48,307 nt of DNA from Escherichia coli (GTDB lineage Bacteria; Pseudomonadota; Gammaproteobacteria; Enterobacterales; Enterobacteriaceae). Location: assembly GCF_003334385.1 (NCBI RefSeq), contig NZ_QOWN01000033.1. The stretch is one strand, 5' to 3'. The notes under the pieces were generated by a model that searched no databases, was not told where the DNA came from, and worked only from the letters and a program-made list of their open reading frames with translations. This document shows positions 15,900 through 48,300 of this stretch, piece after piece. A program made the translations under genes and the position numbers. Numbering within the stretch: position 1 is the stretch's first letter; each line of letters opens with the position of its first letter.

Positions 15900-18193
<2,294 letters not shown>

Positions 18194-24707: not shown

Positions 24708-25787
24708 ATGAATGAGTTGGTGCAGATCCTGAAAAATACCCGTCAGCATTTAATGACGGGCGTTTCACACATGATTCCCTTCGTGGTATCGGGCGGTATT
24801 TTGCTGGCGGTTTCCGTCATGTTGTATGGCAAAGGCGCAGTGCCGGATGCCGTAGCCGATCCAAATCTGAAAAAACTGTTTGATATCGGCGTTGCGGGCT
24901 TGACGCTGATGGTGCCTTTCCTCGCAGCGTACATCGGTTATTCCATTGCAGAGCGTTCTGCGCTGGCTCCGTGCGCTATCGGTGCCTGGGTTGGTAACAG
25001 CTTTGGTGCGGGCTTCTTTGGTGCACTGATCGCCGGGATTATCGGCGGCATCGTGGTGCATTACCTGAAGAAAATTCCGGTGCATAAAGTTCTGCGCTCG
25101 GTGATGCCTATCTTCATTATTCCTATCGTCGGCACACTGATTACCGCAGGCATCATGATGTGGGGCTTGGGCGAGCCTGTAGGGGCGTTGACCAACAGCC
25201 TGACTCAGTGGCTTCAGGGGATGCAGCAGGGCAGCATTGTTATGCTGGCGGTGATCATGGGTCTGATGCTGGCGTTCGATATGGGCGGTCCGGTTAACAA
25301 AGTGGCCTATGCCTTCATGCTGATTTGCGTTGCTCAGGGTGTTTATACCGTGGTGGCCATCGCTGCCGTGGGTATTTGTATCCCGCCGCTGGGGATGGGG
25401 CTGGCGACGCTGATTGGTCGTAAAAATTTCTCCGCAGAAGAGCGCGAAACCGGCAAAGCGGCACTGGTGATGGGCTGTGTTGGCGTTACTGAAGGGGCGA
25501 TTCCTTTCGCCGCTGCCGATCCGCTGCGTGTCATTCCTTCCATCATGGTCGGTTCAGTTTGTGGTGCAGTAACTGCGGCGCTGGTCGGTGCGCAGTGCTA
25601 TGCAGGCTGGGGTGGTCTGATTGTGCTGCCGGTGGTTGAAGGCAAGCTGGGTTATATCGCAGCAGTGGCTGTCGGAGCAGTGGTGACGGCTGTTTGTGTG
25701 AACGTGCTGAAAAGTCTGGCGCGTAAAAATGGGTCTTCGACTGATGAAAAAGAAGACGACCTGGATTTGGATTTTGAAATTAATTAA
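24708..25787 (+). CDS. frwC: Fructose-like PTS permease EIIC component FrwC (359 aa)
   Basis: Full-length multi-TM ORF MNELVQILKNTRQHLMTGVSHMIPFVVSGGILLAV.... Confidence 0.95.
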   Translation: MNELVQILKNTRQHLMTGVSHMIPFVVSGGILLAVSVMLYGKGAVPDAVADPNLKKLFDIGVAGLTLMVPFLAAYIGYSIAERSALAPCAIGAWVGNSFGAGFFGALIAGIIGGIVVHYLKKIPVHKVLRSVMPIFIIPIVGTLITAGIMMWGLGEPVGALTNSLTQWLQGMQQGSIVMLAVIMGLMLAFDMGGPVNKVAYAFMLICVAQGVYTVVAIAAVGICIPPLGMGLATLIGRKNFSAEERETGKAALVMGCVGVTEGAIPFAAADPLRVIPSIMVGSVCGAVTAALVGAQCYAGWGGLIVLPVVEGKLGYIAAVAVGAVVTAVCVNVLKSLARKNGSSTDEKEDDLDLDFEIN

Positions 25788-42722: not shown

Positions 42723-43055
42723 GGTAGGGCTTACCTGTTCTTATACATAAAAGCAACAGAATGGTAACATTTTATCGCGGGTAAGCCAATTGATCCCCGT
42801 CATTTATCTGGCTATATCCTGAGCGGCCTTTGCTTTGTCTGTTTCTTACTTTTGCCCTGACGTTTTATTGGATTTTTATCGACGATACTCTCCGTTTAAG
42901 CGGCAGGTTTCCGCTGTACGTAAAAGAACCGGCCAAAGAATTGCAGTAAATATGTTTTATTGCGTTACCGTTCATTCACAATACTGGAGCAATCCAGTAT
43001 GTTCATTCTCTGGTATAGTGCCAGCAGTACTTTTGGCAAGGATTCAGACATCGTG

Positions 43056-43703
43056 ATGGGCGTAAGAGCGCAACAAAAAGAAAAAACCCGCCGTTCGCTG
43101 GTGGAAGCCGCATTTAGCCAATTAAGTGCTGAACGCAGCTTCGCCAGCCTGAGTTTGCGTGAAGTGGCGCGTGAAGCGGGCATTGCTCCCACCTCTTTTT
43201 ATCGGCATTTCCGCGACGTAGACGAACTGGGTCTGACCATGGTTGATGAGAGCGGTTTAATGCTACGCCAACTCATGCGCCAGGCGCGTCAGCGTATCGC
43301 CAAAGGCGGGAGTGTGATCCGCACCTCGGTCTCCACATTTATGGAGTTCATCGGTAATAATCCTAACGCCTTCCGGTTATTATTGCGGGAACGCTCCGGC
43401 ACCTCCGCTGCGTTTCGTGCCGCCGTTGCGCGTGAAATTCAGCACTTCATTGCGGAACTTGCGGACTATCTGGAACTCGAAAACCATATGCCGCGTGCGT
43501 TTACTGAAGCGCAAGCCGAAGCAATGGTGACAATTGTCTTCAGTGCGGGTGCCGAGGCGTTGGACGTCGGCGTCGAACAACGTCGGCAATTAGAAGAGCG
43601 ACTGGTACTGCAACTGCGAATGATTTCGAAAGGGGCTTATTACTGGTATCGCCGTGAACAAGAGAAAACCGCAATTATTCCGGGAAATGTGAAGGACGAG
43701 TAA
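43056..43703 (+). CDS. fabR: TetR-family fatty-acid biosynthesis repressor FabR (215 aa from this start; in-frame upstream ATGs at 42960 and 42999 are alternative starts)
   Basis: ORF contains [52 protein letters not shown]... with TetR HTH. Confidence 0.88.
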
Positions 43704-44101: not shown

Positions 44102-45202
44102 TTACTTCGCGGTCAGTAATACGCCGCACTCCATATGGTGCGTGTAGGGGAACTGATCAAACAGAGCCAGACGTTCGACCTTGTGCGTCTGGCTTAATGT
44201 TTCCAGATTCTTGCATAACGTTTCCGGGTTACAGGAGATGTACAAAATACGCGGATACGCCTGCACCATTTTCTCGGTTTCACTGTCCAGACCGCTGCGC
44301 GGTGGGTCGACAAAAATGGTTTCGCACTGATAACTCTTTAAGTCGATCCCTTGCAGGCGGTTAAACTCGCGCACACCATTCATCGCCTGAGTAAATTCTT
44401 CTGCCGCCATACGAATAATTTGTACGTTATCAATATGGTTAGCTGCGATGTTGTATTGCGCAGCAGCAACCGACGGCTTAGCGATTTCGGTGGCTAATAC
44501 CCGATCAAAATTACGCGCCAGCGCTAATGAAAAGTTACCGTTGCCGCAGTACAGCTCCAGTAAATCGCCTTTTGAGCCTTTGGTTACGTCCAGCGCCCAT
44601 TCCAGCATCTGAATATTCATCGCCGCGTTCGGCTGGGTAAAGCTGTTTTCTACCTGACGGTAGATCATCTCTTTCCCTGCGACCGGCAGACGTTCATCGA
44701 TGTAATCCTGATCCAGCTCGATTTTGGTTTTCGTTGCCCGACCAATCAGATGCACATTCAGATTCTGCGCGCGCAGTGCATCGCGCAGGGCCTCCGCTTC
44801 CTGACGCCACTCATCATCCAGCTTCTTATGGTATAGCAGGGAAACCACCGCCTGATTACTCAGCGTAGTGAGGTAATCAATCTGGAACAACTTGTGGCGC
44901 AGAACGGGATTATTACGCACACCCGCAATCATCGCCGTCATCAACTGGTTGATAAGTTCACTGGCGGCGGGGAAGCTATCCACGCGGATGCGGCTTTTGG
45001 TTTGTTGATCGAAAATGATGTGATACAGGTCATCGCCATCGTGCCAGATGCGGAACTCCGCGCGCATCCGGTAATGACTGACCGGCGAGCGAAACACTTC
45101 CGGAACCAGGTCAGAAAACGGTGCCATCATACTTTGCAAACGTACCACTTTTTCGGCTAACTGCGCTTCATACTGTTCTGTTGGAAGGTGTTCGGGGGTC
45201 AT
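44102..45202 (-). CDS. trmA: tRNA/tmRNA (uracil-C5)-methyltransferase TrmA (366 aa)
   Basis: Full-length [43 protein letters not shown].... Confidence 0.96.
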
Positions 45203-45330
45203 GATGTATCCTGAAAAATTAAAGTACGCGGCGATTGTAGGGATTGCTCATCAGATGTCCAGATCTTGATGAATTCCTATTTGTGAGCTACGTCTGGACA
45301 GTAACTTGTTACAACCTGTAGCATCCACTT

Positions 45331-45570
45331 GCCGGTCCTGTGAGTTAATAGGGAATCCAGTGCGAATCTGGAGCTGACGCGCAGCGGTAAGGAAAGGTGC
45401 GATGATTGCGTTATGCGGACACTGCCATTCGGTGGGAAGTCATCATCTCTTAGTATCTTAGATACCCCTCCAAGCCCGAAGACCTGCCGGCCAACGTCGC
45501 ATCTGGTTCTCATCATCGCGTAATATTGATGAAACCTGCGGCATCCTTCTTCTATTGTGGATGCTTTACA
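45331..45570 (+). promoter_or_regulatory. btuB leader: adenosylcobalamin (B12) riboswitch
   Basis: Leader GCCGGTCCTGTGAGTTAATAGGGAATCCAGTGCGAATCTGGAGCTGACGCGCAGCGGTAAGGAAAGGTGCGATG... with B12-box-like AAGCCCGAAGACCTGCCGG (about 45473-45490) upstream of the btuB ATG. Confidence 0.85.
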
Positions 45571-47442
45571 ATGATTAAAAAAGCTTCGCTGCTGACGGCG
45601 TGTTCCGTCACGGCATTTTCCGCTTGGGCACAGGATACCAGCCCGGATACTCTCGTCGTTACTGCTAACCGTTTTGAACAGCCGCGCAGCACTGTGCTTG
45701 CACCAACCACCGTTGTGACCCGTCAGGATATCGACCGCTGGCAGTCGACCTCGGTCAATGATGTGCTGCGCCGTCTTCCGGGCGTCGATATCACCCAAAA
45801 CGGCGGTTCAGGTCAGCTCTCATCTATTTTTATTCGCGGTACAAATGCCAGTCATGTGTTGGTGTTAATTGATGGCGTACGCCTGAATCTGGCGGGGGTG
45901 AGTGGTTCTGCCGACCTTAGCCAGTTCCCTATTGCGCTTGTCCAGCGTGTTGAATATATCCGTGGGCCGCGCTCCGCTGTTTATGGTTCCGATGCAATAG
46001 GCGGGGTGGTGAATATCATCACGACGCGCGATGAACCCGGAACGGAAATTTCAGCAGGGTGGGGAAGCAATAGTTATCAGAACTATGATGTCTCTACGCA
46101 GCAACAACTGGGGGATAAGACACGGGTAACGCTGTTGGGCGATTATGCCCATACTCATGGTTATGATGTTGTTGCCTATGGTAATACCGGAACGCAAGCG
46201 CAGACAGATAACGATGGTTTTTTAAGTAAAACGCTTTATGGCGCGCTGGAGCATAACTTTACTGATGCCTGGAGCGGCTTTGTGCGCGGCTATGGCTATG
46301 ATAACCGTACCAATTATGACGCGTATTATTCTCCCGGTTCACCGTTGCTCGATACCCGTAAACTCTATAGCCAAAGTTGGGACGCCGGGCTGCGCTATAA
46401 CGGCGAACTGATTAAATCACAACTCATTACCAGCTATAGCCATAGCAAAGATTACAACTACGATCCCCATTATGGTCGTTATGATTCGTCGGCGACGCTC
46501 GATGAGATGAAGCAATACACCGTCCAGTGGGCAAACAATGTCATCGTTGGTCACGGTAGTATTGGTGCGGGTGTCGACTGGCAGAAACAGACTACGACGC
46601 CGGGTACAGGTTATGTTGAGGATGGATATGATCAACGTAATACCGGCATCTATCTGACCGGGCTGCAACAAGTCGGCGATTTTACCTTTGAAGGCGCAGC
46701 ACGCAGTGACGATAACTCACAGTTTGGTCGTCATGGAACCTGGCAAACCAGCGCCGGTTGGGAATTCATCGAAGGTTATCGCTTCATTGCTTCCTACGGG
46801 ACATCTTATAAGGCACCAAATCTGGGGCAACTGTATGGCTTCTACGGAAATCCGAATCTGGACCCGGAGAAAAGCAAACAGTGGGAAGGCGCGTTTGAAG
46901 GCTTAACCGCTGGGGTGAACTGGCGTATTTCCGGATATCGTAACGATGTCAGTGACTTGATCGATTATGATGATCACACCCTGAAATATTACAACGAAGG
47001 GAAAGCGCGGATTAAGGGCGTCGAGGCGACCGCCAATTTTGATACCGGACCACTGACGCATACTGTGAGTTATGATTATGTCGATGCGCGCAATGCGATT
47101 ACCGACACGCCGTTGTTACGCCGTGCTAAACAGCAGGTGAAATACCAGCTCGACTGGCAGTTGTATGACTTCGACTGGGGTATTACTTATCAGTATTTAG
47201 GCACTCGCTATGATAAGGATTACTCATCTTATCCTTATCAAACCGTTAAAATGGGCGGTGTGAGCTTGTGGGATCTTGCGGTTGCGTATCCGGTCACCTC
47301 TCACCTGACAGTTCGTGGTAAAATAGCCAACCTGTTCGACAAAGATTATGAGACAGTCTATGGCTACCAAACTGCAGGACGGGAATACACCTTGTCTGGC
47401 AGCTACACCTTCAGAACCACGTCCCACCGTGCTGGTGTTTGA
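45571..47442 (+). CDS. btuB: TonB-dependent vitamin B12 / colicin / phage BF23 outer-membrane receptor BtuB, here 623 codons: canonical 614 plus a 9-residue C-terminal extension (RTTSHRAGV) from a stop-loss
   Basis: ORF contains [35 protein letters not shown] (signal peptide and TonB box) through ...TLSGSYTF; the codon after the terminal Phe (47413-47415) is AGA, not a stop, and the next in-frame stop is TGA at 47440-47442. Confidence 0.9.
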
Positions 47443-48217
47443 CTCCGGCGTCGGTGGGTTGTCGGTCTATGACGAGATCCGGCATCTCTTACCGGATCTC
47501 CATTACATTTATGCTTTCGATAACGTCGCTTTCCCGTATGGCGAAAAAAGCGAAGCGTTTATTGTTGAGCGAGTGGTGGCAATTGTCACCGCGGTGCAAG
47601 AACGTTATCCCCTTGCGCTGGCTGTGGTCGCTTGCAACACTGCCAGTACCGTTTCACTTCCTGCATTACGCGAAAAGTTCGACTTCCCGGTTGTTGGTGT
47701 CGTGCCGGCGATTAAACCTGCTGCACGTCTGACGGCAAATGGCATTGTCGGATTACTGGCAACCCGCGGAACAGTTAAACGTTCTTATACTCATGAGCTG
47801 ATCGCGCGTTTCGCTAATGAATGCCAGATAGAAATGCTGGGCTCGGCAGAGATGGTTGAGTTGGCTGAAGCGAAGCTACATGGCGAAGATGTTTCTCTGG
47901 ATGCACTAAAACGTATCCTACGCCCGTGGTTAAGAATGAAAGAGCCGCCAGATACCGTTGTATTGGGTTGCACCCATTTCCCTCTACTACAAGAAGAACT
48001 GTTACAAGTGCTGCCAGAGGGAACCCGGCTGGTGGATTCTGGCGCAGCGATTGCTCGCCGAACGGCCTGGTTGTTAGAACATGAAGCCCCGGATGCAAAA
48101 TCTGCCGATGCGAATATTGCCTTTTGTATGGCAATGACGCCAGGAGCTGAACAATTATTGCCCGTTTTACAGCGTTACGGCTTCGAAACGCTCGAAAAAC
48201 TGGCAGTTTTAGGCTGA
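47360..48217 (+). CDS. murI: Glutamate racemase MurI (285 aa)
   Basis: ORF contains [40 protein letters not shown]...; start lies inside the btuB 3' end in a different frame. Confidence 0.94.
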
Positions 48218-48237
48218 TTTGGTTGAATGTTGCGCGG

Positions 48238-48300
48238 TCAGAAAATTATTTTAAATTTCCTCTTGTCAGGCCGGAATAACTCCCTATAATGCGCCACCAC
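48238..48300 (+). promoter_or_regulatory. rrnB P1 ribosomal RNA promoter (UP element, -35 TTGTCA at 48263-48268, -10 TATAAT at 48285-48290); the rRNA operon itself lies beyond the window
   Basis: TCAGAAAATTATTTTAAATTTCCTCTTGTCAGGCCGGAATAACTCCCTATAATGCGCCACCACTGACACG, which I recognise as the rrnB P1 core with its A/T-rich UP element. Confidence 0.85.

Follow-up and report, generated by a model that had tools for sequence, protein, structure and literature searches.

A stop-loss allele of btuB in a minor Escherichia coli lineage extends the vitamin B12 transporter by nine residues and is silent in the overlapping murI gene

BtuB is the TonB-dependent cobalamin transporter of E. coli and the receptor for phage BF23 and the E colicins. 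In the stretch of DNA analysed here, a piece of 48,307 nucleotides from an E. coli contig (NZ_QOWN01000033.1, assembly GCF_003334385.1; hereafter the window), the btuB reading frame does not end at its usual position but continues into murI, the essential glutamate racemase gene that overlaps it. The locus therefore raises the question of what becomes of an outer membrane receptor when nine residues are appended to its last barrel strand: whether its assembly or function suffers, whether such a loss has served the strains that carry it, or whether the tail is simply tolerated.

The codon of the phenylalanine with which BtuB normally ends, F614 (TTC at 47410-47412), is followed in the window by AGA ACC ACG TCC CAC CGT GCT GGT GTT TGA. 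Translation from the ATG at 45571, which is the annotated and HMM-supported start, gives a product of 623 amino acids with the C-terminal tail RTTSHRAGV. The list of open reading frames begins btuB 45 nt further upstream, at TTG 45526 (638 aa), which is merely the first possible start. An earlier note made from the sequence had described a BtuB that runs past F614 through AGA to the TGA at 47440-47442, and its frames, coordinates and tail are all correct. The murI gene starts at ATG 47360 in a different frame, such that base 47413 is the third position of its codon 18 (47411-47413). The change converts this codon from TCT to TCA, both of which encode Ser18, and the next codon is GAA; any of the four bases at 47413 would give serine in murI. 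The same MurI accession, WP_000201820.1, is found in the carrier strain SCU-104 and in non-carrier genomes, and the earlier description of the change as silent in murI thus holds. The overlap between the two genes grows from 56 nt to 83 nt in the stop-loss allele.

Comparison with two non-carrier genomes, CFSAN061761 and ML35, isolated the change to a single base. Across positions 45201-48307, a 3.1-kb segment that spans the riboswitch, btuB and murI, the T-to-A substitution at 47413 is the sole difference between these genomes and the window. In both of them btuB is annotated as a gene of 1,845 nt (614 aa) that ends in TTC TGA, and residues 1-614 of the stop-loss protein are identical to those of the common BtuB, WP_000591359.1. 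The substitution abolishes the btuB stop, adds nine residues and leaves MurI intact. Coordinates of the features are collected in Table 1; the riboswitch was located from its annotation in SCU-104 (25317-25506 of the retrieved locus), with window coordinates equal to locus coordinates plus 19999.

Table 1. Positions of the btuB and murI features in the window.
Feature	Positions	Strand	Remarks
btuB coding sequence, stop-loss allele	45571-47442	+	623 codons plus stop; annotated by PGAP as btuB, WP_016232390.1, 1,872 nt
Ancestral btuB coding sequence	45571-47415	+	614 codons
Last barrel strand, residues 605-614, bearing the Y-x-F end of the beta-signal	47383-47412	+	DSSP on the AlphaFold2 model
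Old stop TGA, here AGA (Arg615); T-to-A at 47413	47413-47415	+	Allele counts, reference annotation
Nine-codon extension RTTSHRAGV, out of frame from the murI coding region	47413-47439	+	Translation
New btuB stop TGA	47440-47442	+	Sequence
murI (glutamate racemase) coding sequence, MurI protein unaltered, 285 aa	47360-48217	+	WP_000201820.1
Cobalamin riboswitch in the btuB leader, unaltered	45316-45505	+	Annotated in SCU-104; window identical to SCU-104 over 45201-48307

The ancestral state of the site was read from 5,426 complete RefSeq E. coli genomes, in which alleles were counted with 55-mers centred on 47413 under megablast seeding that requires the central base to match. T was present in 5,425 genomes and A in one, SCU-104. 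These two bases account for the whole set, with C or G at this position (the CGA and GGA forms of stop loss) in none of the 5,426 genomes. The counts agree with the earlier inference that the ancestral stop was TGA and that T is the expected base at 47413. Metagenome contigs yielded no match to a stop-loss pattern that allowed A, C or G at this base, against 68 to the wild-type pattern. The same genomes revealed considerable variation elsewhere in the gene: 375 of the 5,426 contain a btuB that is 80-90% identical to the stop-loss allele and a further 91 one that is only 60-80% identical. These divergent alleles (approximately 466 of 5,426 genomes) still have T, and hence the stop, at 47413, and their number suggests that the btuB locus is plausibly under diversifying pressure.

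The extended product is recognisable as BtuB. Both BtuB equivalog models cover residues 1-614 from end to end, NF007926 with a score of 1112 bits (cut-off 836) and TIGR01779 with 903 bits (cut-off 599.7). PF07715 and PF00593 also match the 623-residue product, and the TonB box DTLVVTA occupies residues 26-32. Residues 21-614 are identical to the mature BtuB crystal chain 1NQE_A. The gene lies in the trmA-btuB-murI context behind a cobalamin riboswitch, as annotated in SCU-104, with which the window is identical over 45201-48307. What departs from the norm is the end of the protein. A BtuB is expected to finish with the phenylalanine that closes its last strand (SGSYTF-COOH), and here nine residues follow F614. 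The HMMs for BtuB and for heme and siderophore receptors all stop at residue 614, which places the tail outside every family model, and all BtuB chains in the PDB end at F614. The gene also lacks the marks of a pseudogene, namely truncation, frameshift or insertion: its reading frame is intact, and indeed longer, and PGAP annotates it as a normal coding sequence.

We modelled the 623-residue protein with AlphaFold2 on the basis of 131 homologues. The model (mean pLDDT 92.6) comprises a plug and a barrel in which residues 605-614 form the last strand, followed by coil at residues 615-623 where pLDDT falls to approximately 49. The predicted fold thus appears compatible with the extension, which would hang as a tail from the periplasmic rim. 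Compared with canonical E. coli BtuB (WP_000591359.1; 1NQE), the allele retains 100% identity over residues 1-614, the same riboswitch, the same trmA-btuB-murI-rrn context and an overlap with murI; it differs in the lost stop, the nine added residues, the displacement of Y-x-F from the free C-terminus and the longer overlap (83 rather than 56 nt). Signal peptide, TonB box, plug, 22-strand barrel, riboswitch and MurI are all untouched.

Two sets of homologues show how strictly the end position of BtuB is kept. The close set consisted of the best 120 representatives of clusters at 90% identity (74-100% identity to BtuB), drawn from Escherichia, Salmonella, Citrobacter, Enterobacter, Cronobacter, Scandinavium and Klebsiella. 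Every one of these best 120 ends at the F614 column, 119 in phenylalanine and 116 in SGSYTF. In the distant set, which comprised 131 full-length representatives at 50% clustering (27-67% identity), 83 sequences end at the F614 column itself, whereas 24 extend one residue past it, 12 two, eight three, two four and one six; one sequence ends a residue short. Tails of 1-6 residues are therefore found in 47 of these 131 homologues (e.g., LRYAP, LRYVPAAK) and tails of at least seven residues in none. A tail of nine residues is longer than any of these natural ones, and the distribution argues for selection against long extensions. The residue in the F614 column itself is less constrained in the distant set, being aromatic in 63 sequences and non-aromatic in 68 (proline in 27). 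The Y612 column, two residues upstream, is better conserved, with an aromatic residue in 108 of 131. Given that the terminal column is often non-aromatic and that short tails are common, a strictly terminal aromatic is not required in BtuB-type barrels generally; from these sequences, the rule appears strict in the BtuB of Enterobacteriaceae and not family-wide.

These comparisons divide the premise on which the earlier note had rested its expectation of reduced BtuB, namely that the C-terminal aromatic residue of an outer membrane barrel belongs to the signal for its assembly. The conservation of the end position stands (120 of the best 120 close clusters, none of 131 distant homologues with seven or more extra residues, and family HMMs that end at 614), whereas the universality of the aromatic does not (63 of 131). 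The finding that the end is invariant in Enterobacteriaceae, while short tails and a terminal-column proline are common in distant homologues, can be reused beyond this allele. It is also limited in what it conveys, since conservation of the end position shows that there is selection and not how strong it is; a very small fitness cost would suffice. A side observation from the clustering concerns gene calling: the 90%-identity cluster that holds E. coli BtuB (12,499 members) also includes MurI glutamate racemases of 283-285 aa, presumably an artefact of overlapping or fused btuB-murI gene calls.

The relevance of the end position lies in the beta-signal, which is situated in the final barrel strand and pairs with, or is templated on, strand beta1 of BamA (PMC7383365). 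Its consensus motif ends in [aromatic/hydrophobic]-x-[aromatic/hydrophobic], and recognition by BAM is also helped by internal signals (PMC10945584). In the stop-loss protein Y612-T-F614 is intact and now ends nine residues short of the C-terminus, behind which the added residues are for the most part polar or basic. A known parallel is the porin PhoE, for which Struyve et al. in 1991 and de Cock et al. in 1997 reportedly found that deletion or substitution of the terminal phenylalanine impairs assembly, less so at low expression. The BtuB allele resembles these mutants in that it affects the C-terminal element by which BAM recognises a substrate, and the phenotype expected by analogy would be slower or less efficient assembly, milder at low expression; it differs from them in that all motif residues are kept and are instead masked by the extension. 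The cell needs only few copies of BtuB. In unassembled porins, the free YxF C-terminus is also reported (Walsh, 2003) to activate DegS.

Precedents for tolerance come from elsewhere. OmpA and the usher proteins carry periplasmic domains after their barrels. Together with LptD bearing a C-terminal His10 tag, they likewise have periplasmic residues behind the last strand and are nonetheless assembled and functional, although all of them are barrels of other families and LptD relies on assembly factors of its own. The tagged LptD is known to be functional in E. coli (PMC8423444). A tailed example among TonB-dependent transporters was not found, and none of the best 120 BtuB clusters at the level of Enterobacteriaceae is tailed.

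Taken with the structural model, the conservation data lead us to favour, with a probability of roughly 0.5, the reading that the allele is a hypomorph, mildly deleterious and short of a null, in a receptor that the cell can do without. The barrel would still fold, with the tail projecting into the periplasm. As Y-x-F no longer lies at a free C-terminus, its recognition and handling by BAM would probably be somewhat less efficient, and the YxF end that DegS normally senses would be masked by the tail. E. coli would tolerate the allele since it can dispense with BtuB and requires it only in low copy number. We consider a measurable drop in outer membrane BtuB, or in its function, slightly the better bet. 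That the allele protects usefully against BF23-like phages or E colicins, on the other hand, seems unlikely to us; phage or colicin resistance from the stop loss is possible but unsupported. The consequences that the earlier note had proposed, i.e., reduced outer membrane BtuB, resistance to BF23 and E colicins, and reduced B12 uptake, are accordingly best regarded as conjectural. The case for a drastic effect is weakened by the intact barrel in the AlphaFold2 model, the functional LptD-His10, the internal BAM signals, the low copy number in which BtuB is needed, the terminal aromatic that is not universal in the family, and the persistence of the allele in nature. Carrier strains may take up B12 differently and may differ in their sensitivity to BF23/T5-like phages and E colicins. 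Should the tail impair assembly, the allele would provide a natural reagent for studying how strictly BAM needs the beta-signal at a free C-terminus in a 22-strand transporter.

The main rival to a mild hypomorph is full neutrality, under which the tail hangs loose in the periplasm without harm to the assembly or function of BtuB, and the allele spread in one clone by drift or hitch-hiking. We regard this as a serious contender, if one on which we would stop short of even odds. Several of the observations that speak against a drastic effect fit neutrality equally well, including the short tails of other family members, LptD-His10 (PMC8423444), the internal signals, the persistence of the allele and the absence of a pseudogene flag from PGAP. 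In its favour, AlphaFold2 predicts an undamaged barrel that ends in a disordered tail, 47 of the 131 family members have 1-6 residues beyond the terminal column, in which proline is frequent, and the allele is present on 60 contigs with several flanking haplotypes. Carriers also display no secondary decay of btuB. This last point carries no weight at a divergence of approximately 1.8e-4 per site, at which carriers would be expected to have gained less than one additional change per gene. Against neutrality, the position of the stop is invariant in 120 of the best 120 close clusters and in 5,425 of 5,426 genomes, even though murI leaves the site free to vary, and no natural tail of seven or more residues occurs in the 131 homologues.

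Adaptive loss of the receptor is a minority possibility. According to this reading, the extension masks the beta-signal and blocks BAM-dependent assembly, BtuB is depleted from the outer membrane, and a commensal lineage has been selected for resistance to BF23/T5-like phages or E/A colicins through the one position of the stop codon at which a change leaves the essential murI unaltered. We think this rather improbable. Phages and colicins are known to use BtuB as a receptor, and deletion of btuB abolishes killing by E colicins (PMC10924462). The approximately 466 genomes with highly divergent btuB fit selection at the locus, natural disruption of btuB by an insertion sequence exists, as in strain RM10410, and the end position of BtuB is strongly constrained. 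However, the allele appears to have a single origin, with no recurrence in the 5,426 genomes or the scanned metagenome contigs; its frequency is very low; resistance is reached far more easily through simple null alleles, by IS insertion or nonsense mutation; and the fold prediction is unaffected. Nothing that we found supports adaptive resistance specifically. The records for SCU-104 contain a 1.5-kb cryptic plasmid and no further plasmid, and thus no colicin plasmid. If receptor depletion were true, the allele would constitute a natural in vivo test of the need of a TonB-dependent transporter for its C-terminal aromatic.

Natural btuB nulls, which arise by IS insertion, nonsense mutation or deletion, affect the same locus as the stop loss and possibly act in the same direction, toward less receptor. 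In contrast to them, the stop-loss allele keeps the full protein and is an intact gene to PGAP, and any loss would be partial and post-translational. In RM10410 (NZ_CP042350.1, 4638161-4647804), an IS2 element lies in btuB, which is annotated there only as a TonB-dependent receptor domain-containing protein. Strains IAL7255 and IAL7254 (NZ_CM130730.1 and NZ_CM130001.1) have an IS481-family transposase in the same 8.3-kb region.

It is very improbable that the substitution acts through expression of murI, by mRNA structure or translational coupling, and not through BtuB. The SNP does lie 54 nt into murI, and ribosomes translating btuB would terminate 27 nt further into that gene. Yet both alleles are predicted to give the same mRNA fold and to leave the murI start region equally accessible, the murI start precedes either btuB stop, old or new, such that the geometry of coupling is essentially unchanged, and the MurI protein is unaltered. 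An effect through murI mRNA structure was rejected on these grounds. Lastly, an error of sequencing or assembly at 47413, the sort of explanation that a base found in just one of 5,426 complete genomes invites, has a negligible probability, since the same base recurs in independent assemblies of differing projects and years (SCU-104, GCA_900449955, GCA_037022815, GCA_030007155 and KTE14), 60 contigs carry the allele, and the window differs from SCU-104 elsewhere.

The distribution of the allele also establishes its descent. The exact 623-residue protein is the RefSeq entry WP_016232390.1, named vitamin B12 transporter BtuB [Escherichia coli KTE14], and an exact-sequence look-up found it in NCBI, ENA, JGI, Logan and UniRef, on 60 contigs in total. 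The four separate NCBI assemblies retrieved all have AGA at the codon, the allele is present in SCU-104 and in at least three other NCBI assemblies, and the 623-residue sequence is exact in all carriers. The earlier note had named related strains with AGA and a 623-residue product as the observation that would count against its reading. Such strains exist, and what they rule out is a private mutation or a sequencing error, not the stop loss; a private mutation was rejected because the same allele recurs in independent assemblies and on 60 contigs. Nor does AGA in these relatives make it the normal state of the codon, with T at 47413 in 5,425 of 5,426 genomes.

Carriers are closely related to each other without being identical. 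The window and SCU-104 differ by 8 SNPs over 44.5 kb (approximately 1.8e-4 per site), and an ISVsa5 element (IS4-like) located between hslV and hslU in SCU-104 (locus 16175-17470) is absent from the corresponding site of the window (about 3852-3860); together, these differences indicate that the window comes from a different strain than SCU-104. Carriers have at least four flanking haplotypes within 5.7 kb, and this variety indicates that the allele is shared by descent in a diversified lineage. SCU-104 belongs to phylogroup A and ST8125 and was isolated from a healthy student (PMC11251922). The stop-loss allele is thus a genuine point mutation that has been passed on vertically within a minor E. 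coli lineage of phylogroup A. By a very rough estimate from the 1.8e-4 differences per site, the age of this lineage may be decades to centuries. The variant WP_016232390.1 can be used as a genuine lineage marker and not dismissed as an error, though its practical value is modest; in other respects it is an unremarkable, rare polymorphism of a thoroughly studied gene.

Neither the gene nor its overlap with murI is new, and the protein variant already has a RefSeq entry; in this sense the allele is catalogued. Within the library searched, no paper connected BtuB with a C-terminal phenylalanine or dealt with a btuB stop loss, and on beta-signals followed by a C-terminal extension or tag there were only general reviews and the LptD-His10 case. 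One candidate precedent for a tail on BtuB was discarded, as the C-terminal extension described in PMC10404256 belongs to BtuG.

Comparison of the carriers yielded several minor observations. SNP sites between the window and SCU-104 include 37986, 39237 and 39793 (argB-argH), 11865 (metB), 4659 (ftsN), and 42777 and 42779 (the sthA-fabR spacer). At the protein level, the window has S338 in ArgH, S339 in MetB and V287 in FtsN, where SCU-104 has C, T and I, respectively. In comparison with SCU-104, CFSAN061761 and ML35, the three argB-argH SNPs occur in the window alone, and this cluster may mark a small recombination tract. In the carrier GCA_037022815.1 (JBAMFE010000601.1, positions 1-477), the 5' end of fabR contains a duplication of approximately 61 bp and approximately 12 extra bases relative to window positions 43047-43107, which may be an assembly artefact.
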